NCBI GenBank assembly: GCA_041390465.1 | Contig: JAWKPW010000001.1 | Location: 26,225 to 90,224, forward strand | Length of the DNA: 64,000 nucleotides | Direction: 5' to 3' | Source: Desulfobacterales bacterium | GTDB taxonomy: Bacteria > Desulfobacterota > Desulfobacteria > Desulfobacterales > Desulfococcaceae | Part shown: positions 1,899 through 33,510 of the stretch, piece after piece | Numbering within the stretch: position 1 is the first letter of the stretch | Layout of the letters: every line of letters starts with the position of its first letter | Translations under genes and position numbers: made by a program | The notes under the pieces: model-generated | Told to the model about the DNA's origin: nothing | Database searches by the model: none | What the model saw: the letters and a program-made list of their open reading frames with translations, nothing else

Positions 1899-3601
1899 CT
1901 ACACCATCACCACGGAAGCCGCTTCCTCAAAGGAGGTGATTCCCATGCGCACTTTCTCCGCTGCATTTTCTTTCAGTATTCTCAGATTCCCCATTCGCTG
2001 AACTGCCAGACTGATATTGGTGGCAGACTGGGCGTTGAGTATCATTTCCCGGACCATCTCATCGACAGCCAGCACCTCGAAAACTCCGGTTCGATCCTTG
2101 TATCCGGTATTCATGCAGTTATGACATCCCTTTGCCTGAAAAAAACTGCTGCTTCCCATTTCTCTTATTCCCCAGTAGTTCAAAATGCTTTCCGGAGGAA
2201 CAAAGGGCTGTTTGCAGTTGCTGCACAGTTTGCGCACCAGACGCTGTGCGATCAGAAGAAGCAGCACAGAGGAAACCAGAAAGGGAGCGATCTTCATGTC
2301 AATAAAACGGGTGATGGCTCCCGCTGCATTGTTGGTATGGAGTGTGCTTAACACCCTGTGGCCGGTCAGCGAGGCCTGAATCGCGATTTCGGCTGTTTCC
2401 ATGTCCCGTATTTCCCCCACCAGAATCACATCCGGATCCTGTCTCAGAATGGAGCGGATGCCGCTGGCAAATGTCATGCCAGCCTTGTGGTTCAACTGGG
2501 TCTGGCGTATGCCTTCAATACGGTATTCCACCGGATCTTCCAAAGTGATGATATTGATATCCGGCTGGTTGATTTCCTTGAGCAGAGAATACAGGGTGGT
2601 GGTCTTGCCGCTTCCGGTCGGTCCCGTGCTCAGTATCATGCCATAGGGTTTTCCCATCACAGATTCGACTTTTTCCCTGTCCTCGCTGTTCATTCCCAGT
2701 TGTTCAAGAGAAAAAATTCCCGCGCTGGTGTCCAGCAGACGCAGCACCATGTTTTCTCCGTGTATGGTTGGCAGTGTGGAGGCGCGGATATTGATCTCCC
2801 GGTGATTTTTTTTGATGGTGAATCTGCCGTCCTGGGGCAGTCTCATGGTGGCAATGTCCATATTGGCCAAAATTTTGATGCGGAGATAATGGGCAGAAAC
2901 ATATGCCTGGGAGGAGGCGGCACGTCATGAAGTTTTCCATCCACCCGAAAACGCACCTGCACCCGTTTTTTTTCCGGGCTGATATGAATGTCGCTGGCTC
3001 TCTGGCTCGTGGCAGTATCCAGCAAAGTTTCCACGAGCTTGACGACCGGAGCATCTTCTGCCATGCCTTTGAGTTCCCGGCCGCTGATTTCCAGATCCTC
3101 AGACAGCTCATCTCCGCTGTCAAAGGGCAGTTCCCCGTCCGGCTGAATATTGCGTACCAGTTCGGAGATGCCGAAATTTGCCCCAAAGAGATTCTGCACC
3201 AGTTCATTGAATTCCTGCTCTGTGCAGATGACCGGTTTCACCTCCCTTTCCACAAGGGATTCAATGGTATCCAGCGCATCCATATCCAGAGGATCGGTCA
3301 TGGCAACCGTCAGCAGTCTCCCTCCGTTTTTTATGGGGACAGCCTGATATTTCTGAACAGTTTCCGGAGCCATGATTTCATTCAGTTTCGGATCCGGCAG
3401 ATAATTGCGGGGATGGTAGCGATCCAGATGCAACTGACTGCACAGGACATTGACCATCTGGGACTCGTCAATCATGTTTTCCCTTACAATGTATTGACCA
3501 AATCTCATATTGAGCTGTTTATGCCCAATCAGGGCTTCACGCACCTGGTCTTCTGTCAGCATTCCGGCTTCCAGCAGGATTTCTCCCATTTTTTTTCTCA
3601 A
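1899..3601 (-). CDS. GspE/PilB-family secretion ATPase (MshE-like) with an apparent single-base frameshift near 2880-2915
   Basis: Two overlapping ORFs (2843..3601, N-terminal T2SSE_N domain; 1899..2870, Walker A 'GPTGSGKTTTLYSLL' core). The downstream ORF's frame read upstream gives 'AYVSAHYLRIKILANMDIATMRLPQDGRF', which is the conserved GspE segment. This shows one gene split by a +/-1 shift. The N-terminus carries two tandem 24-residue MshEN-like motifs (KMGEILLEAGMLTEDQVREALIGH and RFGQYIVRENMIDESQMVNVLCSQ). Confidence 0.85.
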
Positions 3602-3662: not shown

Positions 3663-5210
3663 TCAGTTGCCCTGTCCTGAAAAACTGGCACAAAAGACCG
3701 TATCCGGAGCCCATGAATCCGGAGTTCTGATTTTCGCTCCGAATTCCGGAGGCAGAGTGCTCATCCTCCGGATGGCTGAGGATTCATCAGAAAAATATTC
3801 ATCCAAAATGACAAGAAATTTCAGTTTCTCCTGTGAATTCCAGCAGGAAATCAGACGCAGAACCTCCCCCCGGGCCTGTGCATGGGTGCGCATCCTCTCC
3901 ATTGCCGACTCAAGATCAGGACAGGACTGTATTTCAATAAAATAACTGCGAACGGAACCGGGCTGTTCCCCGGAAATAATGACAGGAAAAACAATGTCCT
4001 GTCCCGCAGGAATACGGTGGAGATTTCCGATATGCGGGTTTTGGGCCAGGACGGTTTCCAGAATCCGGGGAGAAGTCCTGCCGTATACCATTCGGATCAG
4101 TTCCCCCAGGGTTTCCCCGGGTTTGAGGGAAAGCTGCCCCAGTCTGTCCGGGAAATCCTTTGTCCCTTTCTGTGTTTTCAAAGAGTTTGCAGGAGCCTGC
4201 TGCCATGCTGTTTTTTCCCTGTGCTGTGCATAAAATCCTCCTGCCCGGAAGATTTCCCGGATTTGCATTGCAAAACGGCCGTCAGCGATTCCGACAAGCA
4301 GCAGGCATGCAAAGATTCCTGAAAAAAAAAGCAGCATGTTTCCTGCCGGCCGGGCCACAGTTTCTTTCCGATCCGTTCCATACAGTCCCCTGAGGGCGCA
4401 TATCCGAATCAGAGACCATCGGATTCTGGAACGGTTCTGTATAATCATCATCAGCAGGCACTGATGACACAGGTTCACGATTTTTCTTGGATATCCCTTT
4501 GTCTCCCGGTATATTTTCCACAAAGCCGGACCGGTGAACAAATCTGCTGCTCCGGCTCCTGCACCGGACTGTTTCAGACGAAAGCGGATCATTTCTTTCA
4601 TCTCTGTGAAATTCAGAGGGGGGAGAACCTCATGCAGGCTGATCCGATCCGCAAAATTGGCATGGAGGGCAAGGCTTTCCCTGAATTCCCGCTGGGCAAA
4701 AATGACAATCTGCAGCAGTTTGTGCTCATTGGTTTCATAGTTGAGAAATTCTCTGAGGATTTCCATAAAGAATCCCGGAATTTTCTGGCCTTCATCAATA
4801 ATCAGGACAACGGTTTTGTTTTCTTCAACCCCCCTGCGGAAGAGAATCTGCTTGATGTTTTCTCTTGCATCACGCTCCGGAATATCAGGCTGGAAATGAT
4901 TTTTTTCTGTTTTGCCAAACAGTTGTGCCACTGCTGCCAGAGATTCCGAAGACGTTTTGAAAAAAGGGTCGAGGATGAGATGGATTTCCATATTCTTATC
5001 CTCTGCCAGTCTTCGGATAAGCTGCCGGCACAGGGTTGTTTTTCCTGTGCCCACATCTCCGATGACCACGCTGAGTCCTCTCCGCAGACGCAGAGAAAGC
5101 TCCAGTCTCTGCAGACAGCCCGCATGCTGGCGGGACTGAAAAAAAAGATCCGGATCCGGTGAATTGGAAAATGGTTCCTTTTTCAGATGCAGCAGATTGA
5201 AATATTCCAT
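3663..5210 (-). CDS. ExeA/GspA/MshM-like AAA ATPase with C-terminal periplasmic domain
   Basis: N-terminus 'MEYFNLLHLKKEPFSNSPDPDLFF' matches the canonical ExeA start. Walker A 'GDVGTGKTTLC', a central TM helix, and a C-terminal domain typical of ExeA peptidoglycan-binding partners. The ORF extends to 5273, but the internal Met at 5210 fits the family N-terminus. Confidence 0.8.
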   Translation of the reverse strand: MEYFNLLHLKKEPFSNSPDPDLFFQSRQHAGCLQRLELSLRLRRGLSVVIGDVGTGKTTLCRQLIRRLAEDKNMEIHLILDPFFKTSSESLAAVAQLFGKTEKNHFQPDIPERDARENIKQILFRRGVEENKTVVLIIDEGQKIPGFFMEILREFLNYETNEHKLLQIVIFAQREFRESLALHANFADRISLHEVLPPLNFTEMKEMIRFRLKQSGAGAGAADLFTGPALWKIYRETKGYPRKIVNLCHQCLLMMIIQNRSRIRWSLIRICALRGLYGTDRKETVARPAGNMLLFFSGIFACLLLVGIADGRFAMQIREIFRAGGFYAQHREKTAWQQAPANSLKTQKGTKDFPDRLGQLSLKPGETLGELIRMVYGRTSPRILETVLAQNPHIGNLHRIPAGQDIVFPVIISGEQPGSVRSYFIEIQSCPDLESAMERMRTHAQARGEVLRLISCWNSQEKLKFLVILDEYFSDESSAIRRMSTLPPEFGAKIRTPDSWAPDTVFCASFSGQGN

Positions 5211-5323
5211 TTTTTTATGTTTGCCGATCAAAGTGCCGGAGTGAAACTGACCTCCGGACTGTTCATCAGTCATTCGTCAATGCACCGGACTGAAGCCTGT
5301 GCCATTTTTTCTCTTTCCGATAT

Positions 5324-8145: not shown

Positions 8146-10154
8146 TTCTGTGTTTCCATTTGGATTGCAAAATACAGGACAGATTTGCTGTCATAGACCT
8201 GCTCCTTTTTTTCCTGAAGAAGCGGCTCGCTGAAAACCGGTATGGCGCTGAGCGCTGTCTGATAGTCAAAAAGGAGAGCTTCCCGTTTCACCGCATCCCC
8301 GGCAGTGACAATTCCCTGAACAATGACAACAGAGATGTTCCCAGGAGATTTGTCCTGCAATTCTGTTTCTTTCTCTTTCGCTCCGTCTGCAATGCATTTC
8401 AGATCCGTCAGACGGATTTGGGGAGGCACTGTCACCTCACAGACAGCGCTGATAAGGGCAAGGTCTGTATAACGGCTGCTGAAATTCCGGGCCTGCTGCC
8501 TTCTTTTGATAACTCTGTTTGCCAGTTCCTCAATGGTGGCGCTGTCAAAAACCTTATGCTCATGACTGCGAATTCCGTCTTCATAAGTCCTGCGCAGGGT
8601 TTCAAATTTTCTGTCCTTTTCCCGGATGACACGATCCTGGGCAAAACAGATACCCAGGCAGACAACTGCAATTATAACAAAAGCTATGGTGACAAAATGA
8701 TCTGCACGCATGGAATTAAGATATTTCTGTTTGTCTTTGTGGGTGAAAAGAAAATTCGGGGTGAAAAAATTTTTCGAAAGAGCCATGCCCACCGCAGGAA
8801 CATAACTGCCTCTTTCAGCCGCATTGCCCGGAATTTCCATGTCCTTTGCAACAAAATCGAAGAAAAAGGGATCCATCTCTCTGGTTTCAACGGGCTTTTC
8901 CAGATATGTTCCGATATATTCAATCAGAGGTCGGCAACCGCTGATTTCACCGGAGATGAAAATCTTTCCCACCCCTTTGTCTCCGATGCAGGTCTGGCAT
9001 GACTCAATGGCTCTTTCCACGCGCCATATCAGGCGCTTAATGGATGGGATAAGCATTTCGAATATTTCTTTGGGGCTGATATCCAGTTGGTTTTCCGCCA
9101 GTACCGTTTCCAGTTCCGGAGAATTTTGGATCAAACCGAAAAAAATTTCCTCTGTCACGTTATCCGGAAGGGGATGCGGAATGCTGTCTGACAGTTGTAT
9201 CTGCTCATGCGGTTCCGGATTGCGCGGAAGAAGGTATTCATTTATTCCCTCCCGGAGTTCTTCGAGCATGCTGCTCATGCATGCCAGGATTCTGCTTGAC
9301 AGCACCAGATTTCCGTTTGAGAAAAAAATATCTATCCGGGACCAGTTCCTCCCCACATAAAGACAGCATACATTCTGTCCATCCGCCATAATATACTGGA
9401 ATCTGATAAGATTTTGGATGGCAAAGGGATAAAGGGATATCCCTGTCAAAGGAAAGCCGATCCCTGAAAAAAGGTTCCTGATTTTTTCGATTTCATGACG
9501 CGGAGCCGCATAGATCATGACTGCTTTTCTGTTTATGCCGTTTTGAAGATATTCTCCAATATATTCAAAATCAAAGATGTATTCTTCCTCATTCAGGGCT
9601 TTTGTTTTTTTGTATTCCCAGTAAACCGTGTTGGGAAGTTCCCTTTCGGAAACCATGGGAACAGTAAGAAAGCGGGTTTCCACATTTTCCAGGGGCATGA
9701 CAGCCCAGATATCCGTGCGGATGTCTGAATGGCAGAAGGTTTTCATCACGGATTTCAGAAATTCAGGACCGGGTTTTCCTGTTGACAGGTCCTTTTCAGC
9801 AGGAACAGTCATATAGGCTGTCAGTTTCCGTTTCTGCGATCCTGTGCTTCTGAATCTGGCCAGTTTCAGACAGCCGTTTCCAAAATCAATGCCAACAGTG
9901 ATTTTTTCCCGAAAAGAAAACAGGTTATGATAAAAGGGCCTGGAGATCCGGGACAGAATCACGCCCCTTGCGCCATGCAGAAACTCGGCTGGATCCGTTT
10001 CCATGCGATACAGCGATGCTGTTTCAGAAACTGTTCCGGTTCCTGTCTGATCCATGCGGAGAGACGGGGTTTCGACTGCCGGACCTGTGCCACTGTTTTC
10101 CCGTATCAGGTCAAGAAGTCTCTCTGTTGAAGAAATATCGTCACGTCTGACCAA
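8142..10154 (-). CDS. PilM-PilN fusion protein (MshI-like), actin-like ATPase fold plus TM/periplasmic PilN-like part
   Basis: 670 aa. 'KITVGIDFGNGCLKLARF' PilM-type actin-like N-domain, a central TM helix ('FVTIAFVIIAVVCLGICFA') and a PilN-like C-terminal region. Start codon TTG at 10154; internal Met alternatives exist. Confidence 0.7.
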   Translation of the reverse strand: MVRRDDISSTERLLDLIRENSGTGPAVETPSLRMDQTGTGTVSETASLYRMETDPAEFLHGARGVILSRISRPFYHNLFSFREKITVGIDFGNGCLKLARFRSTGSQKRKLTAYMTVPAEKDLSTGKPGPEFLKSVMKTFCHSDIRTDIWAVMPLENVETRFLTVPMVSERELPNTVYWEYKKTKALNEEEYIFDFEYIGEYLQNGINRKAVMIYAAPRHEIEKIRNLFSGIGFPLTGISLYPFAIQNLIRFQYIMADGQNVCCLYVGRNWSRIDIFFSNGNLVLSSRILACMSSMLEELREGINEYLLPRNPEPHEQIQLSDSIPHPLPDNVTEEIFFGLIQNSPELETVLAENQLDISPKEIFEMLIPSIKRLIWRVERAIESCQTCIGDKGVGKIFISGEISGCRPLIEYIGTYLEKPVETREMDPFFFDFVAKDMEIPGNAAERGSYVPAVGMALSKNFFTPNFLFTHKDKQKYLNSMRADHFVTIAFVIIAVVCLGICFAQDRVIREKDRKFETLRRTYEDGIRSHEHKVFDSATIEELANRVIKRRQQARNFSSRYTDLALISAVCEVTVPPQIRLTDLKCIADGAKEKETELQDKSPGNISVVIVQGIVTAGDAVKREALLFDYQTALSAIPVFSEPLLQEKKEQVYDSKSVLYFAIQMETQK

Positions 10155-10841: not shown

Positions 10842-10902
10842 CCTCACGACCTCCTTTTCAATCCACGTTATGACAGGGATTCTTCTCTGCTGAAAAAATG
10901 GC

Positions 10903-10935
10903 AAGTGCGGGTTTCGAACCCGTCCCCCGGAAAAC
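10903..10935 (-). other. tRNA 3'-end-like fragment (T-arm plus acceptor 3' strand), no complete cloverleaf
   Basis: The minus strand reads 'GGGGGACGGGTTCGAAACCCGCACTTGCCA'. This is a GGTTCGAA T-loop with flanking stem and a CCA-terminated 3' strand, but no matching acceptor 5' strand, D-arm or anticodon arm lies upstream. Confidence 0.3.
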
Positions 10936-11102
10936 TGTCAGCACATGCAGGCCGGCACCCGGCCCGCAGTCGACAGAGAACAATGAACATTATCCGAAGA
11001 TTTTAATCAATGGGGAGGATGGGGTATTTGCCGGTAGATTTCCCCTGCTTTGGGAATCAGAGAGAAGATTCCAAAATCCGGAATATTTTTCTCCAAGAGG
11101 AT

Positions 11103-11131
11103 TTGACACTTTGAGATTCATATCATATATA
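11103..11131 (+). promoter_or_regulatory. Near-consensus sigma-70 promoter (-35 TTGACA, 17-bp spacer, -10 TATATA)
   Basis: TTGACA at 11103-11108, 17-nt spacer, TATATA at 11126-11131, about 85 nt upstream of the 11216 start (RBS AGGAGAGGGG). Confidence 0.5.
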
Positions 11132-11215
11132 GTTTCTAAAAAAATTTGTCTGAAAAGCTCCCGGTGTCTGCCCGGAGTCTGAAGATGCGTGACTGTTTAT
11201 GCAAGGAGAGGGGTT

Positions 11216-12217
11216 ATGACAGAAAAACTCTTTACAAGAGATACCTGGAAGCCCAAAAGTTTTGACGAGGAGACCAGTTCTGTCCGGGTTGTGGCTGTGA
11301 CGGAAAATCCGGTCCGGGTATGGGACTGGAACAGCAGACAGTATATTGATGAGGTGCTGCTGGTGGACGGTTTTTCCCTGCCGCCCAGCGGGAAAATTCC
11401 ACTGCTGGACGCACACAACCGATCCAGTGTTGCCAGTGTGCTGGGAAGCGCAAGAAGATTCCATCCCAGCGGAAACACTCTGGAATGCGATGTGTTTTTT
11501 TCCGGTACGGATGTGGGCAGAAATGCTGCCCAGAATGTGAGGGAAGGCCATCTGACGGATTTTTCCGTGGGCTATTTTCCGGTCGAGTCCTATTATATCA
11601 GGGAAGGAGAGTCCAAAGACATTAACGGCAGGTTTTTCCGGGGCCCGATAAAAGTGACTGCCAGATGGAATCTGAGAGAACTTTCCCTGACACCCATAGG
11701 AGCGGATCAGTATGCAACAGCCCGTTCGGAAAACGGACTTATCTCCTCTCCTGAGGGGATGATTCCTTCTCCGCCTCAGATGCCAAATGCGCCTGCACAG
11801 GAACCCGGGTCTCCGGTGGCACAGACTCCGGAACAGCCCATGCCGCCTGTGCAGCAGAATGCTGCCCGGGCAGAGGTTCAGACTCCGGAGCCTGTTCAGC
11901 AGACTTCGGCTGATTTGCAGATGGAACCTTCCCGGCCCGCTGTGCAGACTCCGCCGCCCCAGGCTGTTTCACCTCCCGCGGAAGTTCCTCAGCCTGATAC
12001 CGCCCAGCGGGCTGTGCCCCAACAGGACAAAAAAACACCGCAGACAGGCCAGCAGAGTGCGGAGCACGTGTCTGAACGGCAGCGGCAGCAGTTGCCGCCC
12101 AAACCGATCCCTCTTGCGCCAAAATCCCGGCAGGCGGAAAGAGATTTTGTGGATATGATTTTTTACGCCTTTCTGGCCATAGCGGTTCTTTTCATTCTCA
12201 AAGGCATGTTTTTATAG
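11216..12217 (+). CDS. HK97-family phage prohead protease (Peptidase S78) homolog with Pro/Gln-rich linker and C-terminal TM anchor; orphan, no capsid or portal genes
   Basis: N-terminal ~190 aa aligns to the prohead protease fold with catalytic-type His ('LLDAHNRSS') and Ser ('LTDFSVGYFPVES') motifs and 'RELSLTPIGADQYA'. Then ~120 aa of PQ-rich low complexity and a terminal hydrophobic helix 'MIFYAFLAIAVLFILKGMFL'. Strong RBS. Confidence 0.65.
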   Translation: MTEKLFTRDTWKPKSFDEETSSVRVVAVTENPVRVWDWNSRQYIDEVLLVDGFSLPPSGKIPLLDAHNRSSVASVLGSARRFHPSGNTLECDVFFSGTDVGRNAAQNVREGHLTDFSVGYFPVESYYIREGESKDINGRFFRGPIKVTARWNLRELSLTPIGADQYATARSENGLISSPEGMIPSPPQMPNAPAQEPGSPVAQTPEQPMPPVQQNAARAEVQTPEPVQQTSADLQMEPSRPAVQTPPPQAVSPPAEVPQPDTAQRAVPQQDKKTPQTGQQSAEHVSERQRQQLPPKPIPLAPKSRQAERDFVDMIFYAFLAIAVLFILKGMFL

Positions 12218-12409
12218 GTGCGTCTTGCAAAAATGGAAGGCAACAAACTGTACATAAAAGGAGCGGATATGCCGGATGGCACCCCGCTTTTGGACATCAG
12301 GCCCTGTGTGCCGGAATTTGACAGGTGTGAGGTCCAAAAGACGGGGCGGTTTGCGGATGTTTCAGAAAAACCTGAAAAAGCAAAGGACAATGGCAGATTT
12401 TTCCGCTGA
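12218..12409 (+). pseudogene. C-terminal fragment of a TsaA/YaeB-like gene (tRNA m6t6A37 methyltransferase family), in frame directly after the preceding stop codon
   Basis: 'VRLAKMEGNKLYIKGADMPDGTPLLDIRPCVPEFD' matches the conserved '...VRLE.IEGN.L.V.GVDLLDGTPLLDIKPY' end of the TsaA domain. The ~110 N-terminal residues of the family are absent. Confidence 0.55.
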
Positions 12410-12412
12410 GGT

Positions 12413-12820
12413 TCAGGTTTTGCCTTTCACCTTTTTCAGCTTTTCTTCAATCCGGGCAAAAAGATTGCGCTGGTCTTCTTCTTTTCTGGCCTGAAAAGCT
12501 TCAATTTTTTCTTTAAAGTTTTTCTGCGTGCTCTGAAACTTTTCGATTTCCTCCCGGATAGTGGTTCCAGGTTCATGCCTGGGAATTTCCTCGATTTTCA
12601 GATGATCCCGGATAAAGAGGCGGGTTCCGTAAGGACCTTTGACCATCTCGACAATCTCCTGCTCATCGAGCCTTTTGCACAGGAGGTGCCCCAGTTCCAG
12701 AGACATGGACAGGGTTTCACAGATGGCATCCACAGAAGGAGGTTCACTGTGACCGTGCTCGTATATCCGTATGGCTGCCACCACAAGGTGGCTTTGGGTA
12801 TAAAAATCGTTTGCCTTCAT
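12413..12820 (-). CDS. Hypothetical protein (135 aa, coiled-coil C-terminus)
   Basis: ORF with GAGG RBS 8 nt upstream of the Met at 12820; no recognisable domain. Confidence 0.45.
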   Translation of the reverse strand: MKANDFYTQSHLVVAAIRIYEHGHSEPPSVDAICETLSMSLELGHLLCKRLDEQEIVEMVKGPYGTRLFIRDHLKIEEIPRHEPGTTIREEIEKFQSTQKNFKEKIEAFQARKEEDQRNLFARIEEKLKKVKGKT

Positions 12821-19119: not shown

Positions 19120-22100
19120 ATGGAAATCTCCGTAAAAAATTATACGTTGTCAAAAAAACTTTATGAAAGTTCAAACTCACTGGTTTTCAGAGCCTTCCGG
19201 AATCAGGACGGAAAACCCGTCATTCTGAAAATGCTCAGGGAAGCCCGTCCCTCTCCCGAACGGATTGCATGGTTCAGGCGTGAATATGAAATAAACCGGA
19301 AGATGCGACTTTCGGGCATTCCTGATATTTATGAACTTAAAAACGAAGATAACCGCTGGATGATGGTAATGGAAGATTTTGGCGGAGATTCACTGCATGT
19401 TTTAAAGATTGCCGGAAACACGGATTTGCAGAATTTTCTTGCACTGGCCGTAAAAATTGCGGAAATTGTCGGCCAGATTCATCAACTGCATATCATTCAC
19501 AAAGACATCTGCCCGGCCAATATTGTGCTGAACCCTGCAGGCGGACAGGTCAAAATCATTGATTTCGGAATTTCCACAGTATTATCCCGTGAAAATCAGA
19601 CCTTCTGCAGCCCCGGCATTCTGCAGGGAAATCTGAATTATATTTCCCCGGAGCAGACCGGCCGCATGAACCGGGCAATGGATTATCGCACGGATTTTTA
19701 TTCGCTTGGCATAAGTTTTTATGAACTTCTCACAGGCCGCCTGCCTTTTCAGAGTGATGATCCCCTTGAACTGATTCACTGCCACCTTGCCAGACACGCG
19801 ACTGCTCCGTCTCTGCTTCTTTCATCAATGCCGGTCTTTCCCTTCCGCGAGGAACTGCGCCCTGTGCTTGACGCGGTTTCTTCCATCATTATGAAACTGA
19901 TGGCAAAGAACGCGCAGGATCGTTATCAGTCCGCCTGCGGCCTGATAACAGATTTGGAAAAATGCCTTTCCTTTGTTTCAGAACCCTTGTCCGCCATTGG
20001 TTTCACCCCCGGTTCCCAGGATGTTTCCGACCGATTCATGATTCCCCAGAAACTTTATGGCCGCAGCAGGGAAATTTCCCGTTTGCTTCAGTTGTTTGAT
20101 CAGACCTCCGCGGGAGAAAAGCATCTGATTCTGGTAAGCGGAGAACCGGGAGTTGGAAAATCTGCTTTGATTCAGGAGCTTTACAGACCAATCACTGAAA
20201 AACGGGCATATTTCCTTTCAGGCAAATTTGATCAGTATCAGCGCAATATCCCCTTTGTTGCATTCCGTCAGGCATTCCGCCAGTTCTGTGACCATCTGCT
20301 GACACAACGTTCGGAAGATCTTGCGGTCTGGAAAAAGAAAATTCTGGATGCAGTTGGTGACAGCGGGCAGGTTCTCATTGATGTGATTCCCCATCTTGAA
20401 TTTGTGATTGGAAAGCAGCCGGAGATTCCCCAAGTCGGTTTTCAGGAGTCCCAAAACCGCTTTTATCTGTATTTTCAGTATTTCATCAGAGCCATCTGCC
20501 AGCCGGAACATCCGCTGGTGATTTTTGCTGATGATTTGCAGTGGGCAGATGCTGCCTCGCTCCATCTCATCAAAGTGCTGATGTCAGATGCCCAAAGCAC
20601 AAATCTTATGATTATCGGTGCATTTCGTGACAATGAAGTTTTCCCAGGCCATCCTCTGATGATCATGCTGCAGGAAATGCAGGATTCCGCAATCACGGTT
20701 CACCGGATTCATGTTGAAAACCTCAGACCTGAAAATGTGCTGGAAATGACAGGGGACTGTCTGCACTCTGACGCGGAAAAAGTCAGACCTCTGGCGGATC
20801 TGATCTGTGAAAAAACTCTGGGCAATGCCTTTTTCCTGATTCAGTTTTTAAGCGGTCTTTATGATGACGGGCTTGTGAGATTTTCCCGCGAAGCAGGCTG
20901 GATCTGGGATGTGGAAAAGATCCGTTCAAGAGAAATCACAGACAATGCTGTTTCCTTTATGAGCGGAAAGATCCGGAAACTTCCCCCTGAGATTCAAAAC
21001 CTGCTGAAGCTGGCTTCCTGTCTGGGAAACCGTTTTGAGCTGAATGTCCTGTCCCATATCAGGGAAGGTTCACGGGAGGAGACAAATCTGCATATTTTTG
21101 AATGCGTCCGGGAAGGACTTCTGATTCCTCTGGATGATGCCTGCAAACTGATGCTGACCGCAGGAGAAAAAACCGGGGATGGCGGCTGGCTGCGCTTTGT
21201 TCATGATCGGGTCCAGCAGGCTGCATACATGCTGATGGATGAAAATCTGCGCAGGACAGCGCATTTGAAAATCGGCAGAGTGATGCTGAAAAACACGGAT
21301 CCGGCCCAACTGGAAAACCGGATTTTTGACATTGTCGGGCATCTGAATTTTCTTGCAGAAGACAGCTTCTCTGACAGCAGCCGGGAGGAAAAGACGGACA
21401 TCGCCCGGCTGAATCTGACAGCAGGCAAAAAAGCGATGGCCTCAGCAGCCTATGCTGCGGCACTCGGTTATCTGAAAACAGGGATCGGCCTGCTGGGGGA
21501 GAGCCGCTGGCAAACGCATTTTGATCTCGCGATGGAACTTTGCAGAGAAGCCGCGCAGGCTGCCTATCTTGCCGGAGATTATCCGGAAATGGAACAGCAT
21601 CTTGCAGATGCCGGGCATTATGCAAAGACAGTTGGGGACAAACTTCATGCCATTGAAATCCGCATTCTTGCGCTGCAGGCACAAAACAGACTGGAAGCGG
21701 CCATCCAAACCGGACTGTCCGGATTAAAGGAACTGGGATGTGAATTTCCGGAAAATCCGACACCTGAAAATATGGAAGAAACACTGCGTCATACCATGCA
21801 GCAGATATCCCAAAAGGGATTTGAAGGCATTGTCTCTCTTCCGGAAATGACGGACCCGCAGCAGTATGCTGTCAGTCAGCTTCTGGGAACCCTGACCACA
21901 CTGGCCATTATGGTGGCACACAGTCTGCTGCCCCTGATTGTGTGCAGACAGATCCGCATCTCCCTGACATACGGAACAAATCCGGCATCATCTTTCGGAT
22001 ATGTGACCTGCGGCATCATTCTGTGCAATATTGCCAATGACATTGCCTCCGGATACCGCATGGGCCGTGCGGGCCTGGCATTGGCACAGCGCGGGGAGAG

Positions 22101-25100
22101 CGGAACATATCTGCAAAAAACGAAATTTTATTTTCATACGTTTATCCAGCACTGGAAAGAGCATCTGGAGGAAACTGTCCGGCCCCTGCATGAAAACTTT
22201 CTCTCTGCAATGGAAGCCGGACTGCTGGATTTTGCCGCATATTCTGCCGCAAATTATGTTCTCAGCCTGTTTTTCACTGGCAGAGAGCTGACAGAGGTTG
22301 AAAAAAAGACAGAGAAATACGCGCAGGCAATCCAAAACATCCGCCAGATGAATGTCTATTACTGGGTCAAAGCCATGCACCAGGCAGTGCAGAATCTGCT
22401 GGGACAGTCCCCATGCCCCTGGCGGCTGGCAGGCAGAGCCTATGAGGAAGAAAAAATAAGCGCATTTCTGTCAGCCGGAGATGTTTCTCTGCAAACCCAG
22501 AGCAATATTTACAGATGCATGCTGTGCTATCTGTTTGGGCGGTATCAGCAGACTGTGGCGTATGCACGGGAAAGTGTTCCCAATGCCCAGCCCATCTTCG
22601 GACATCCGCTGCTTCCCCTGCTTTACTGGTATGAATCTCTGGGAAATCTTGCTCTCTTTCCAGAATGTTCCCCCGCAGAGCAGGTGCGGATGCTTGAGAC
22701 CGTGAACAGCAATCAGCAGAAGATGAAGCTTTGGGCTGATCATGCCCCCATGAATCATCTGCACAAATACTGTCTGGTGGAGGCTGAACTCTGCCGTGTC
22801 ACCGGAAAGCATGGAGATGCAAGGGAATATTATGACAAAGCCATAAAACTTGCCAAAGAAAATGAATATCTTCAGGAATATGCTCTGGCAAATGAGCTGG
22901 CCGGGAAATTTTGCATTGAAAAAGGACTTCCCAAAATCGCCAAAATCTATCTCAGAGAAGCCCATTATGCCTACCGGCTTTGGGGTGCAACTGCCAAAGT
23001 CAGTCATTTTGAAAAATCTTACAGATCTTTTTTAAAACCAAAAGAATCAGAGGAAAAGATTTCCTCCCTCACTTCCGTCACCGGAACAGACAGTGCGCAG
23101 ATTTCCTCTTTGCTGGATATTGCCAGCATTGTCAAGGCATCGCAGGCAATTTCAGAAAAAATCATCCTCAATGATTTGCTGAGGAAACTCATGTCTGTCA
23201 TGATGGAAAATGCCGGAGCGCAAAAAGGTTTTTTGCTGCTGGAACGGGGCGGTCATCTGCATATTGAAGCCGAGTCCGGCAGAGAAGAGCAGCCCCTGAA
23301 AGGACTGACTCCTGAAGAGGCCGGAGAGCATCTGAGCCAGGCCATTGTGAATTTTGCATTTCGCACGCATTCGAGCGTGGTATTGAATGATGCAGCCAAT
23401 GAAGGGGAGTATATGACAGACTGGCATGTAAGCAGATACCGTCCCAAATCTGTTTTGTGCATGCCCATTGTCGGACGCGGCCACTGTCTTGGGGTTTTGT
23501 ATCTGGAGAACAGTCTGAGCACACACGGTTTTCCAAAAGAACGGCTGGAAATTCTGGGCATTCTGGCAGTGCAGGCCGCCATCTCCATTGAAAACGCACG
23601 CCTGTATGCCAGTCTGGAACAGCGCGTAACAGAACGCACAGTCCAATTGGAAAAAGCCAATCAAAAACTGGAAGAAAGCCGGGAAATGTTTTCCACTTTC
23701 ATGGATTATCTGCCTGCGCCTGCCTTTGTCAAGGATGATGAATCAAGAACCCTGTATGTGAACCGGTATTTCAAAGATTTGTTCGGGAATGAATGGGAAG
23801 GAAAATCTGTGATGGAACTTTTTCCCGAACCGGTTGCCAAAGCCATGATGGAAGATGATCGCAGGGCACTGGCACAGGGCATGGTTCAGAATATTGAAAC
23901 CGTTCCGGACAGATATGGGGGAAACAGGATTTTTCAGACCCTGAAATTCCGTCTGGGAAATTCCAGCAGGATCGGGGGGTTCGGCATTGATGTCACAGAG
24001 CTGAAGCAGGCAAAGGAAGCCGCGGAAATCGCAAATCGCGCCAAATCCGAATTCCTGGCCAATATGAGCCATGAAATCCGCACCCCCATGAATGCGCTTG
24101 TGAACATGACCCGTCTGCTGCTGGATACAGAACTGGATGGGGAACAGCGGGATTATGCAGAAACCGCAGTCATGTCATCGGAAATCCTGCTTTCCCTGAT
24201 CAATGACATTCTGGATTTTTCCAAAATTGAGGCAGGGAAACTGGATCTGGAGAAAAGTGATTTCAGCCTCAGGGATATCCTTGAATCTGCTGTCAGGATT
24301 CTCAGGCCCAAAGCAGAGGAAAAAGGGCTGCGCGTGACACACCGTCTTGATCCCAATCTTCCTTCCCATGTTTCAGGCGATCCGGTGCGGGTGCGCCAGA
24401 TTCTGCTGAATTTTCTGAACAATGCAGTCAAATTCACAAAAAAGGGAGACATAGCTGTCCGTGTGCTTGCAGAGGATCAGACAGAGACACACTGCACCGT
24501 GAGATTTGAAGTGGCAGACACAGGTGCGGGGATTCCCGAAAAGCTCAGAAACCGCATGTTTCAGCCCTTTTCCCAGGCTGACAGCTCAACCACGCGGAAA
24601 TACGGGGGCACAGGACTTGGGCTGGCCATTTCCAGACAGATCGCGGAACTTATGGGAGGCACAGTCAGTTTTGAAAGTGAGGAGGGCCGGGGATCAACGT
24701 TCCGGTTCACCGCAAGAATGCGGAAGGCGGAAAGAAAAATGTCTGATGATGAATGCAGAACACCCAGGGAAGCAGACCGCTTCTCCATCCACGGTGCGCA
24801 GTCAGACACTCATCCGCCATTGCACATTCTTGTGGCCGAAGACAATGTCTTCAACCAGAAGGTGGTATCGGCAATTCTGAAAAAATTCGATCTTGCGGCC
24901 GACATTGCCGAAAATGGAAGGGAAACAGTGGATGCGCTTCGCAGCAGGCCCTATGATCTGGTTTTCATGGATATACAGATGCCGGAAATGGACGGACTCA
25001 CGGCTGCCCGAACCATCCGCGATCCGGATTCCGGGGTTCTCAATCCCTGTATTCCCATCATTGCCATGACTGCAAATGCAACAAAGGAAGACAGACGGAA

Positions 25101-25932
25101 ATGCCTTGAAGCCGGAATGAATGACTATATTCCAAAACCCATTGATCCGGAAAAACTGATTTCCGTTATCCGGGAACAGTTGTCAGTGAAAACAGAGCCG
25201 TGCCTGTCAAAAAGAGATTCCCTGAAAACAGAGACCTGCTCCCTGAGCGCTGAAATTTTCAACCGCGCGGATTTCCTGAGGAGACTGGGCGGAGACGAGG
25301 GGATTATGCGGAGAATTTTGTCAGGCATACCGGAAAATCTGGCAGGAGGGATCAGGAAACTGAGATCCGCGGCAGAAGAAAATGATGCGGAAAAAATACA
25401 GTTTTATGCACACAGCATCAGGGGGATCAGTGCCAATATCTCGGCAGAAAGAATAAGGGATGCTGCCTGTGAAATTGAAAATGCAGGGAAAAAGGGTGAA
25501 ACAGACACGGTGCGCGCGCTGACGGACCGGCTGGAACGGGAAGCGGATGCGTTCCGGTCAGTGATTTCAGCCATGTTTCCGGAACTTTTTCAGGCCATTG
25601 AAAAATCTGAACATGCGCAGGAATCTGAAATGATCTCGGAACAGACAGGGCTCCGCATACCGGAACTGATCCGGATGCTGGAAAATAATCTGCTTCCGGA
25701 ATGGGAAAAATGCAAGGATATATTTTTTATTGATGAAACCGAAAAATTTGCTGCGCAGTTGAAGTGCATCGGAACAGAATATCAGCTCGGCTTTCTGATC
25801 CGCTACAGCCGGGAGCTGCATGCGGCTGTGCAGAATTACAATTTCACCCAATGGGAAAAACGTATGTCTGAATTTCCGCAGATTGTCAGCAGAATCAGGA
25901 AACTGGCAGAAAACGGGCCCATCTCCGGCTGA
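19120..25932 (+). CDS. Giant multi-domain signalling protein: Ser/Thr protein kinase, AAA/NACHT-like ATPase, TPR-like region, GAF, PAS, HisKA-HATPase, REC, Hpt, plus the same C-terminal unknown domain
   Basis: 2270 aa. STK motifs '[11 protein letters not shown]', 'DFGIS'. P-loop '[10 protein letters not shown]'. GAF and PAS in the middle. HK/REC/Hpt module about 80% identical in protein to the C-terminus of the upstream kinase. Confidence 0.9.
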
Positions 25933-31000: not shown

Positions 31001-33001
31001 TCACGGATTCTTCTGGCCAGGCTTTTCATCCTGCCCCAGCAGTTTGTTGATATTGAAAAAATTCAGCATGTCCATGGTATTGTGATACCGGATCGGGCCT
31101 GTGCCATCTCCTTTTCCTCCTCCAAAAAGAGTTTCCAGGGGAAGCAGTTTTGCACCCTGCATCACTTCAGCCAGTTTGGAGGCCACAATATACTGCGCGC
31201 CTGCACCGCTCCAGGCATCCACCATGGCTTTCTGTCCTCTGGCCTCGGCCAGGAGTTTGGCCTCAATGCCTTCCGCTCCCTTCTGCGCGGCATACAGCAC
31301 GGCATCAGCGTCAATTTTTTTCTTGGCCGCATCCCCTTCGGCCTCAAATTTCTTTTGGGCCATGAGAATCTCGGCCTCATCCCTTTTCTGTTCTGCCGCG
31401 ATCACGGCCTGTATCTTGATGGTCTCCGCCTTGACCTTTTCTGATTCAAACACAACCAGTTGCTTTTGACGGGAAAGTTCCGCGTTGGCTTTCTGGGTGT
31501 TCTGCTCCTGTTTGTACTGATCTTCCAGTTTGAACGCGATGACTTTCTGGGTGATGGGGCTGCGCAGTTCGGCAGGCACCTCAAAATGCCGCACCAGGGT
31601 CTGGTTGATGATGATTCTGCTTTCTTCGCATTCCTTCTTTATGGCATTGTGCAGATCTGTCTGAAATTTTTCACGGGTCAGACCGTGAATGAATTCCTCT
31701 CCCTTGTTTTTGGAACCGATGATCCGGGCAAAGGCCCGCGCGGAAGGCCGGATCTTTTTGTCCCGCACCGTATTGATATCCCGTCCCACTGTGGCCACAA
31801 TCATGGGGGCATTCTCGGCTTTCACATGATATACAAGTGTCAGGTCAAACTGGATCATGAAACCGTCATCCGAAAGAAAATGAATGGCGTCATCCCCGGC
31901 AGTGTCTCCCTCATTCTGCACCTGGGTCATTTCATAACGCTGTTCCCGTGTGTCAAACGCAATGACTTCATACTCAAACGGATTGACATAATACATGCCG
32001 GGCGGCAGGGTTTCCTCCAGAATGCCGCGTTCCCCCGGTTTTGCCAGCAGTTGTGAGGCGGATTTGGCTTTGCCGGTTTTGGCAACCTGCACCCCCACAG
32101 AACCGTCCGGCACAATCACAGCAGGGACAACCTTCACCTCTTTGTCGTAAGGGTTGATATAATACATGCCGGGCTGCATCACTTCCCGCTGAATGCCCTG
32201 AAATTCGTCATCCCGGCTGACCAGAATGGTCCCGGCCGGGGGCACCTTTCCCACCTTTTTTGTGACAATGCCCACCTGTCCTTTTTCGATGATCGTGGCC
32301 GACACCTGTTCCACCTTCACGGCCAATGGGTTGAAATAATAGGTTCCGGGCGGAATGATTTCCTGCTGGATGCCGCGGTAACTGCTGTCTCTGGGAACCA
32401 GCACCATATTATCCGGCGGCTGATCCCCGGTTTTCCGTATGACCACCCCGATTTTGCCTTCGGGAATCACCACAGCCGGATATTTTGTGACTTTCAGATA
32501 TTTCGGGTTGATGGGATGGAGACCCGGTTTCAGCACTTCGCGGCGGGGACCTTTTCCGCCCATATGAAATACCTCTTTGTCATCAATGACATCTTCATCC
32601 GCAAGGATTTGACCGGGCGGCATGGGGGTTCCGTCCAGAGCCTCCACCAGTCCGATCTGCTGGGATTCTATGGATATCATGGGTTCCTCCGTGATATCAT
32701 ATTTCCAGAGGCATTCCGCGAGCCAGAAAAAATGTCTTCCGGGCAGCAGCACTTCCCGCCAGTACCCCTTTTCCCCCTTTTCCACAATGAAGCGGCCTTC
32801 CACAGCAGGGGTTCTGCCAAATTTGGAAAAAACCACCCCCACATGGCCCGGATCAATGGAAAACATGACTGCCGAGAGGAAAACATAACCTGTCAGAAGA
32901 AAGACAATAGCAAAAACAACCGGTTTCATGGTGAAAAAACTGCCAATGCCTTTGATGGCGCGTTTTTTCACTTCATCTGTTATGACACTTTTCTCTGTCA
33001 T
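31001..33001 (-). CDS. Flotillin/SPFH (band-7) family protein with N-terminal tandem repeat modules
   Basis: 666 aa from the second Met (RBS AAAGGAGGAG). One TM. Five ~45-60-aa repeats each containing 'PG(M/T)YY(V/I/F)NP'-type SPFH N-terminal hairpins, then an SPFH core and a flotillin-type Ala/Glu/Lys-rich coiled coil ('AEAEGDAAKKK...'). Confidence 0.85.
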   Translation of the reverse strand: MTEKSVITDEVKKRAIKGIGSFFTMKPVVFAIVFLLTGYVFLSAVMFSIDPGHVGVVFSKFGRTPAVEGRFIVEKGEKGYWREVLLPGRHFFWLAECLWKYDITEEPMISIESQQIGLVEALDGTPMPPGQILADEDVIDDKEVFHMGGKGPRREVLKPGLHPINPKYLKVTKYPAVVIPEGKIGVVIRKTGDQPPDNMVLVPRDSSYRGIQQEIIPPGTYYFNPLAVKVEQVSATIIEKGQVGIVTKKVGKVPPAGTILVSRDDEFQGIQREVMQPGMYYINPYDKEVKVVPAVIVPDGSVGVQVAKTGKAKSASQLLAKPGERGILEETLPPGMYYVNPFEYEVIAFDTREQRYEMTQVQNEGDTAGDDAIHFLSDDGFMIQFDLTLVYHVKAENAPMIVATVGRDINTVRDKKIRPSARAFARIIGSKNKGEEFIHGLTREKFQTDLHNAIKKECEESRIIINQTLVRHFEVPAELRSPITQKVIAFKLEDQYKQEQNTQKANAELSRQKQLVVFESEKVKAETIKIQAVIAAEQKRDEAEILMAQKKFEAEGDAAKKKIDADAVLYAAQKGAEGIEAKLLAEARGQKAMVDAWSGAGAQYIVASKLAEVMQGAKLLPLETLFGGGKGDGTGPIRYHNTMDMLNFFNINKLLGQDEKPGQKNP

Positions 33002-33510
33002 GGGCTCCTCCTTTCTTGCATGGGTTGGGGGCAGGGGCGGCGGTTCTGTTTGCAGCGGTTCCTTTTCTGTCATGCATACGCACTTTCTGTCATCAGTTTC
33101 AGGCAGGTTTCAGCACATATTCCCCTTTCTGCGGCATAAGGTTTATCTGACTGACATCATTCCTGAATTTTTCAAAGAGAGCAGAAGGCGTTCACAGAGG
33201 TGGCAGAGTTTTTTCTGTGATCTCTGTGGAAACACTGTCTGCACCGGGATACTGTGTGCTGCAACTGCTTTTTTTCTGCAGACAGACAGGCTCGGCAGGC
33301 AGGATGCTGCCCAAAGATTTTTTTCCCGGCAGCTTCGCTTTTTTGAGTTGCTTTGTCTGTAGGCATATATTACAGATAGAAAAGCTGCAGCGTCAACAGA
33401 AAAGAATTCCGGAGGGAAATATCCGCCGAATGCGGGATATTTCTTTCAATATTTTGAAGTTATAATTTTAAAAACTGAAAAGCAGGTTTTGGTCTTTGGG
33501 GAAGACAGTT

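Follow-up and report, generated by a model that had tools for sequence, protein, structure and literature searches.

A tail-anchored relative of phage prohead proteases, probably host-owned, in the Desulfobacterales

Proteases of the HK97/assemblin fold, which act in capsid maturation, are to our knowledge regarded as strictly virion-internal. Those of gene transfer agents (GTAs) are still encoded within a complete set of head and tail genes, and capsid maturation is still their task. A different arrangement is found in a 64,000-nt stretch of DNA from a Desulfobacterales bacterium (contig JAWKPW010000001.1 of assembly GCA_041390465.1, positions 26,225 to 90,224; "the window" below, whose own coordinates are used throughout), in which a gene for a prohead protease-like protein encodes a predicted C-terminal membrane anchor. 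This gene is probably an anciently exapted, host-owned, tail-anchored phage capsid-maturation serine protease with a physiological (regulatory or quality-control) role. The protease family itself is known; what would be new is the membrane-anchored host architecture and its ecology, and a literature search turned up no account of a prohead protease that is membrane-anchored or has been domesticated by a host.

The protein and its relatives

The main features of the gene are as follows.

11216..12217, plus strand: coding sequence of the tail-anchored prohead-protease homolog, 333 aa and a TAG stop
11246..11731, plus strand: protease domain, residues 11-172, with a predicted HK97/T4 prohead protease - herpesvirus assemblin fold
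11414-11416, plus strand: codon of the catalytic-type His67, invariant in 62 homologs
11564-11566, plus strand: codon of the catalytic-type Ser117, invariant in 62 homologs
11732..12130, plus strand: disordered Pro/Gln-rich linker, residues 173-305, 39% P+Q, with AlphaFold confidence (predicted local distance difference test, pLDDT) of 44-64
12131..12214, plus strand: conserved C-terminal tail anchor, residues 306-333 (...VDMIFYAFLAIAVLFILKGMFL), with a hydrophobic helix at 308-332

A Desulfobacterales metagenome-assembled genome (MAG; P0001) encodes the identical protein, labeled there as hypothetical, and the same DNA, including the junction with the trmO remnant downstream (see below), has been assembled independently from two sequencing runs (L001 and L002).

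The case for a prohead protease/assemblin fold over residues 11-172 is strong. The NCBIfam model NF045541 (prohead protease/major capsid fusion) aligns its positions 1-200 of 634 with residues 16-236 at an E value of 5.5e-33, its score of 114.5 lying far below the cut-off of 525; PHROG 4523 ("major head and protease protein") gives an E value of 1.5e-26. An AlphaFold (AF2) model built from 62 homologs has pLDDT >90 for residues ~11-170; compared by Foldseek with viral models (BFVD), it gave 99 matches at E<=0.001, the best at 5.9e-16, and the named matches in the top 50 are nearly all prohead proteases or protease-capsid fusions. Along with H67 and S117, the residues D65, H112, D115, E155, and S157 are invariant in the 62 sequences, and they are shared by tail-anchored and phage relatives. 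S117 aligns with S114 of HK97 gp4, where we take H65 and S114 to be the catalytic pair. Some homologs in the family have a precomputed match to Pfam PF04586, and databases name some members "HK97 family phage prohead protease." The initial annotation, which had proposed a Peptidase-S78-like domain with catalytic-type His and Ser from the sequence of this gene, is borne out on these points.

It had also described a Pro/Gln-rich linker and a C-terminal transmembrane (TM) helix, and both are there. The linker (Pro 22.6%, Gln 16.5%) ranges from ~20 to 250 aa in length across homologs, with unrelated sequences. The final 19 residues of the tail have a Kyte-Doolittle mean of 2.41, and AlphaFold predicts a confident helix at 308-332 (pLDDT >90). 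A word-indexed protein search found 78 homologs, of which ~62 share the protease domain, a variable linker, and a hydrophobic helix at the extreme C-terminus, with 0-6 residues beyond it; Asp313 is kept in at least 90% of homologs, and the tail has the pattern FY...LKG. The N-terminus (MTEKLFTRDTWKPKSFDEE) is hydrophilic and without a signal peptide. A single TM helix at the extreme C-terminus, the absence of a signal peptide, and the bulk of the protein lying N-terminal of the helix are what is expected of a tail-anchored protein.

Some departures from this plan were seen among the relatives. Some linkers of the second paralog group described below (paralog B; L023 / P0040) are Glu/Lys-rich and coiled-coil-like (EKTKELLKTAGEKQEKIKEVLEKQEMLKTLLEKKE); in phage fusions, a scaffold segment of similar, charged character comes after the protease, and these linkers may be what is left of an ancestral scaffold. 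In Desulfobacterales HSG16 (L040 9953-10471), a paralog B copy ends right after the protease domain (176 codons, stop-to-stop), without linker or TM tail, as either a truncated copy or a soluble variant.

Named sources of tail-anchored proteins of this kind are all Desulfobacterales: Desulfonema limicola, D. magnum, and Desulfococcaceae. A genomic scan with one genome per species found 219 relatives, and the best 80 of these fall into two kinds: ~27 tail-anchored open reading frames (ORFs) of 176-433 aa, all in Desulfobacterales, vs. ORFs of 590-810 aa spread over many phyla. The linker-TM architecture, which the initial annotation had suggested should be sought in related genomes, is present both at these ~27 loci and in the ~62 of 78 homologs. 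The long ORFs are phage head genes; two examples carry a Phage_capsid_4 domain and lie directly 3′ of genes for a large terminase and a lambda-type portal. An exhaustive hidden Markov model search of 1.84 billion representative proteins (50% identity clusters) produced 6412 matches. Among the top 150 of these, the first ~30 representatives are tail-anchored, and those that come next are mainly fusions of 620-760 aa; a TM tail is absent from all 94 long proteins in this set (at least 460 aa, mostly of fusion length). The nearest relatives outside the tail-anchored group are metagenomic (pro)phage protease-capsid fusions, with 35-54% identity over the protease domain, and these include phages or prophages of the same phylum (Desulfobacterales, Desulfobulbales). 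Cultured phages match at just ~28% identity.

A neighbor-joining tree was built from 160 columns of the protease domain in 25 tail-anchored proteins and 23 fusions, with 100 bootstraps. In it, the tail-anchored members are monophyletic and separate from the fusions (bootstrap 88/100). They form two subclades (bootstraps 82 and 95), and eight genomes supply one member to each. A monophyletic clade of two subclades, usually with one of each per genome, fits a single capture, one old duplication, and vertical inheritance thereafter.

The ratio of nonsynonymous to synonymous substitution rates (dN/dS) was computed against four orthologs, by protein segment. It is 0.05-0.08 for the protease domain; for the tail, where three of the comparisons gave a value, it is 0.09-0.23, and for the linker, again where computable, 0.37-0.64. 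The protease domain is 95-97% identical among close species. Since purifying selection is this strong, the gene is, judging by substitution rates, a functional host gene and not debris. Domestication as a tail-anchored membrane protein, which had been raised as a possibility when the gene was first noted, is supported by the conserved architecture, the monophyletic host clade, and this selection.

Conservation need not mean catalysis, and one alternative is that the domain survives as a module for binding or scaffolding, such as a membrane adaptor that uses the old substrate groove to recognize a partner, the His/Ser pair being no longer catalytic. No partner gene was found for it in 25 loci, and the strong conservation of the tail helix points to specific intramembrane contacts, both of which would suit such a role. 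Pseudo-enzymes, however, normally lose their catalytic residues, while His67, Ser117, and five more polar residues, which the phage enzymes also have, are kept here in ~60 sequences down to 31% identity. We therefore consider a non-catalytic role improbable; retention of these residues implies that the protein is probably catalytically competent.

The locus and its surroundings

Features flanking the coding sequence are the following.

11203..11208, plus strand: Shine-Dalgarno sequence AAGGAG, 7 nt 5′ of the ATG, kept in the related loci L008 and L009
11100..11132, plus strand: putative sigma-70-type promoter block, read from the sequence, its function presumed
12218..12409, plus strand: remnant of a trmO/tsaA pseudogene (last 63 codons), in frame and directly 3′ of the protease TAG
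10877..10972, no strand assigned: lineage-specific insert of ~96 nt between the genes for a cyclic nucleotide monophosphate (cNMP)-binding protein and the protease, missing from L008 and L009
10899-10935, minus strand: T-arm-like hairpin ACGGGTTCGAAACCCGC-ACTTGCC-A-TTTTTT, inside the 96-nt insert
12413..12820, minus strand: conserved syntenic gene for a 135-aa protein, convergent with the protease gene, with weak IscR/Rrf2-like similarity

The expression signals were initially described as a near-consensus promoter and a strong ribosome-binding site. The second of these holds: the AAGGAG lies 7 nt before the ATG, and the start MTEKLFTRD is common to all homologs. The promoter fares less evenly. 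The -35 hexamer TTGACA (11103-11108) is perfect, but the -10 candidate TATATA (11126-11131, after a 17-nt spacer) matches at only 4/6 positions, with TATAGT at 11128-11133 as an alternative, and a consensus promoter scan made no call at 11100-11132. In the syntenic L008 and L009, this stretch is invariant except at two positions although its flanks have indels, which supports a conserved regulatory block.

The in-frame sequence right after the stop codon is, as first proposed, the C-terminal part of a TsaA-type gene: 63 codons, with a Pfam TrmO_N match (E 3.5e-8) covering positions 83-116 of 116 and so only the end of the domain. The synteny comparison suggested at the same time does turn up the intact gene, a 170-aa trmO following the protease in L006 and L009; the remnant corresponds to residues 108-170 of the L006 protein, with 51% identity. 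Both the window and L008, whose protease is 81% identical, lack ~430 bp that begin just past the protease stop and reach to around codon 108 of trmO. Seen against L009, the deletion junction is TTTTTATA|GGTGCG, common to the window and L008, and the stop codon survives as TAG in the former and TAA in the latter; the remaining 63 codons are open, and in frame by chance. The trmO fragment is thus debris of a local deletion that happened to keep the stop codon, and has no connection with a mobile element. L011 represents an independent loss of trmO, in which the 5′ part of the gene is replaced by DNA with a ~70-nt direct repeat (L011 ~8600-9300; TTATACAATGCGGAATGCAA...GCGGAGCGGTTTTCTGCA) that may be a small repeat element.

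Programmed read-through into the remnant was considered and rejected, and there is no sign of a fused product. The family C-terminus is ...KG(L/M)F(L) everywhere; in L009 and L006, trmO stands downstream as a gene of its own, read in a different frame, and in L008 the remnant is scrambled over its N-terminal part.

The same neighborhood had suggested a decayed prophage or integrative element, of which the protease would be the last gene, beside a tRNA-derived att site and a disrupted tsaA. The protein is indeed of phage origin, a truncated trmO abuts the gene, and ~300 nt upstream lies a hairpin that resembles a T-arm and whose acceptor end is like that of tRNA-Tyr (on the minus strand, ACGGG-TTCGAAA-CCCGC, ACTTGCC-A, and a T-run). 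The hairpin does not stand up as a tRNA 3′ end. ARAGORN found no tRNA genes in the 64-kb window, and Rfam no family in the window at gathering score, nor a tRNA at the hairpin even at E<=10; the exact hairpin 21-mer has no metagenome matches. A degenerate pattern taken from the hairpin retrieves mostly tRNA-Tyr genes, but the tRNA-Tyr nhmmer profile, which aligns over 24 nt only, was chosen by this same pattern, so that the match is circular. By the same loose definition, 2.2 T-arm-like hairpins are expected per window (from shuffles), and one was seen. Finally, since the insert that contains it is missing from L008 and L009, which do have the protease, the hairpin cannot have served as the att site through which an element brought in the gene. 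It is indistinguishable from chance and, to judge by these comparisons, unrelated to the history of the protease gene. The 96-nt insert, single-copy in the window, also folds into a GC-rich hairpin.

Together with the same-locus orthologs beside an intact trmO (L006 and L009), the strong purifying selection on the gene, and its monophyletic host clade, this leaves the decayed-prophage model largely refuted and, in our estimate, very improbable. Phage remnants are also lacking. The statement in the initial annotation that there are no phage genes within 20 kb on either side is correct as far as it can be checked: none for portal, capsid, terminase, or integrase was found from 1 to ~33 kb of the window, which on the left side of the gene covers 11 kb only. 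Unannotated neighbors have no PHROG match, and tblastn searches with the C-terminal parts of 23 fusion proteins, in which a positive control worked, found no capsid remnant in the window or in 27 tail-anchored loci. None of ~25 related tail-anchored loci is a prophage, and the portal - protease - capsid order of a head-morphogenesis module was found neither in the window nor at these loci.

The neighbors are of other kinds. On the left are a type IV pilus/mannose-sensitive hemagglutinin (MSH)-type cluster (type II secretion system F and E proteins, a secretin, a PilM-like protein) and the cNMP-binding protein; on the right, past the trmO remnant, are the 135-aa gene, enolase, two giant sensor kinases, a P-type ATPase, and a Band-7 protein. 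Five genomes (the window and four others), diverged to dS > 1, share the gene order protease - trmO - 135-aa gene - enolase. The 135-aa gene, also present in L006, L008, L009, and L011, serves as a context marker only. Other tail-anchored members follow an RNase G / radical-SAM (S-adenosylmethionine) pair, lie near dnaA/era, or are in other such places. As candidate partners, the radical-SAM genes upstream in three groups were rejected as a coincidence, being of different families; the sensor-kinase matches are at the domain level only.

Some other observations were made on these surroundings. An MshE/PilB-type secretion ATPase (1899-3601, minus strand) is split into two overlapping ORFs, one (2843-3601) with MshEN and the first ~60 T2SSE positions and the other (1899-2870) with the remainder, which points to a frameshift or a sequencing error. 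Inside the pilus cluster (3663-5273, minus strand) is a 536-aa AAA_22/STAND-like ATPase with a Phage_tail_X (LysM-like) domain, which has weak PADLOC matches to candidate defense ATPases. An unusually large hybrid signaling protein of 2270 aa (19120-25932, plus strand) combines Ser/Thr kinase, AAA_16 ATPase, GAF, PAS, histidine kinase, receiver, and Hpt domains.

In both Desulfonema genomes (L003 14699-15868; L004 14987-18014), a flotillin-like FloA is encoded at a distance of 4-6 kb from the tail-anchored protease, with NfeD membrane-protease genes beside it only in D. magnum (L004); the Band-7 protein of the window (31001-33073) is 19 kb from the protease. Though these proteins have membrane-microdomain or protease functions, the distances and arrangements differ, and their proximity is probably coincidental. 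In D. limicola, the gene for the tail-anchored protease is preceded, at a distance of a few kb, by three tandem copies of a gene pair (L003 665-2988; 79 aa and 89 aa, no Pfam matches), with a DDE transposase and group II intron/HNH fragments nearby.

Possible roles

If the gene is an exapted host protease, as we think probable, its history might be reconstructed as follows. An ancestor of the Desulfococcaceae/Desulfonema/Desulfobacteraceae group would have taken the N-terminal protease module of a phage protease-scaffold-major-capsid fusion; the captured module would have shed the capsid part, acquired a C-terminal TM helix, and been duplicated once, giving two vertically inherited paralog lineages.

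Because there is no signal peptide and at most six residues follow the single helix, insertion would be of the tail-anchored type, leaving the His67/Ser117 domain on the cytoplasmic side. The linker would act as a flexible tether holding this domain at the inner face of the membrane, its own sequence and length drifting freely. As free monomers, prohead proteases and assemblins have little activity; they act when crowded or oligomerized. The conserved tail helix, through specific intramembrane contacts, may supply such crowding, by two-dimensional confinement or by oligomerization, so that membrane-proximal cytoplasmic substrates are cleaved. The gene is core-like, evolves slowly, shows vertical inheritance, and lies in housekeeping neighborhoods, all of which suggests a physiological role in the host rather than classical defense.

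Several points weigh against this reading. In the Peptidase_S78 profile check that had been proposed for the domain, the NF045541 and PHROG matches hold, but PF04586 itself (15.4 bits, cut-off 21) and TIGR01543 (19.8, cut-off 59) both stay under their curated cut-offs. PDB sequence searches, with the protein or with a 62-sequence profile, gave nothing relevant, and Foldseek against the PDB reached only E~0.1. The tree is a simple neighbor-joining one, based on 160 columns, and its deeper nodes are weak. The genomes are mostly MAGs, and with the best 80 of 219 matches analyzed, tail-anchored forms may occur beyond the Desulfobacterales as well. All-vs-all clustering of neighbors at 25 loci gave no conserved operon partner, only lineage-specific synteny groups. 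The cytoplasmic position of the N-terminus, and indeed the mechanism as a whole (activity, topology, expression, and substrate), are inferred.

A second possibility is an anti-phage function, in which a membrane-tethered head protease would cleave the scaffold or capsid precursors of infecting phages too soon, or co-assemble with them and tie procapsids to the membrane, and so abort assembly. It would be aimed at phages that build their heads from protease-capsid fusions, and the nearest relatives of the tail-anchored proteins are just such fusions, from (pro)phages of the same phylum (35-54% identity on the protease domain). The retained catalytic residues, the presence of paralogs, the fast-evolving linkers, and the position of the D. 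limicola gene next to mobile DNA and RmuC would all be consistent with it. There is also a precedent for contact between these proteases and bacterial immunity: phage prohead proteases act as triggers of the cyclic-oligonucleotide-based antiphage signaling system (CBASS; PMC12991175).

One argument against an anti-phage function is that no PADLOC family matches the protease at E<=0.1, while the neighbors match only generic cNMP-binding and AAA domains. Nor is there a defense island; the genes nearby are enolase, trmO, RNase G, and dnaA/era. The distribution is vertical and core-like, and a dN/dS of 0.05-0.08 for the domain, with 95-97% identity among close species, is unlike that of genes in an arms race. 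On balance we think such a function unlikely. A related version, in which the protein would be an order-wide, single-gene antiviral or particle-control factor that processes precursors prematurely or captures procapsids of infecting or resident phages at the membrane, seems to us a little more doubtful still. If the antiviral reading were true, it would amount to immunity by mimicry of a virion-assembly enzyme.

The gene would thus represent either a new class of membrane-proximal host protease, which we prefer, or a new form of interference with phage head assembly. As an exapted host protease, it would be a clear natural example of a virus assembly enzyme put to a new use, in which the capsid partner was lost, a tether and an anchor were gained, and the gene was duplicated and has stayed under strong, order-wide selection. 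The case is a tractable one, as the cultured D. limicola and D. magnum have the gene. It is also a caution for annotators and prophage callers: the label "HK97 family phage prohead protease" does not mark a prophage here.

Comparison with known systems

The HK97-family prohead proteases (MEROPS S78 / PF04586; HK97 gp4) belong to the same fold class as the window protein, and have the His...Ser pair at the same spacing of ~50 residues. The window protein differs in scoring under the curated cut-offs for that family; in lying apart from portal and capsid genes; in having a disordered linker and a transmembrane tail in place of the capsid-targeting C-terminus; and in being, by all appearances, host-encoded and vertically inherited, with paralogs.

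Its closest sequence relatives are the protease/major capsid fusions (NF045541; PHROG 4523), among them the "major head and protease protein" gp8 of Stenotrophomonas phage S1, with 28% identity. These fusions are 590-810 aa long, with a charged helical scaffold region and Phage_capsid_4, and are encoded after terminase and portal genes; the window protein has none of these, ending instead at residue 333 with a membrane anchor and without the HK97-fold capsid domain. T4 gp21 and the herpesvirus assemblins (5JBL, 1FL1, 8J3S, 1VZV) are more distant, with just 8-16% sequence identity. They act inside procapsids and none is membrane-anchored, unlike the window protein.

There is a parallel in general plan with proteins of the ZipA type, which share a cytoplasmic globular domain, one TM helix, and a long, disordered P/Q tether. 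ZipA is a bitopic protein with a P/Q-rich flexible tether; it is anchored at its N-terminus, binds FtsZ, and is not a protease. The polarity of the window protein is the opposite, and there is no homology. The GTA proteases are a parallel of another kind, since each is likewise a phage head protease retained by a host; the window protease, in contrast, stands alone and is, by prediction, anchored in the membrane.

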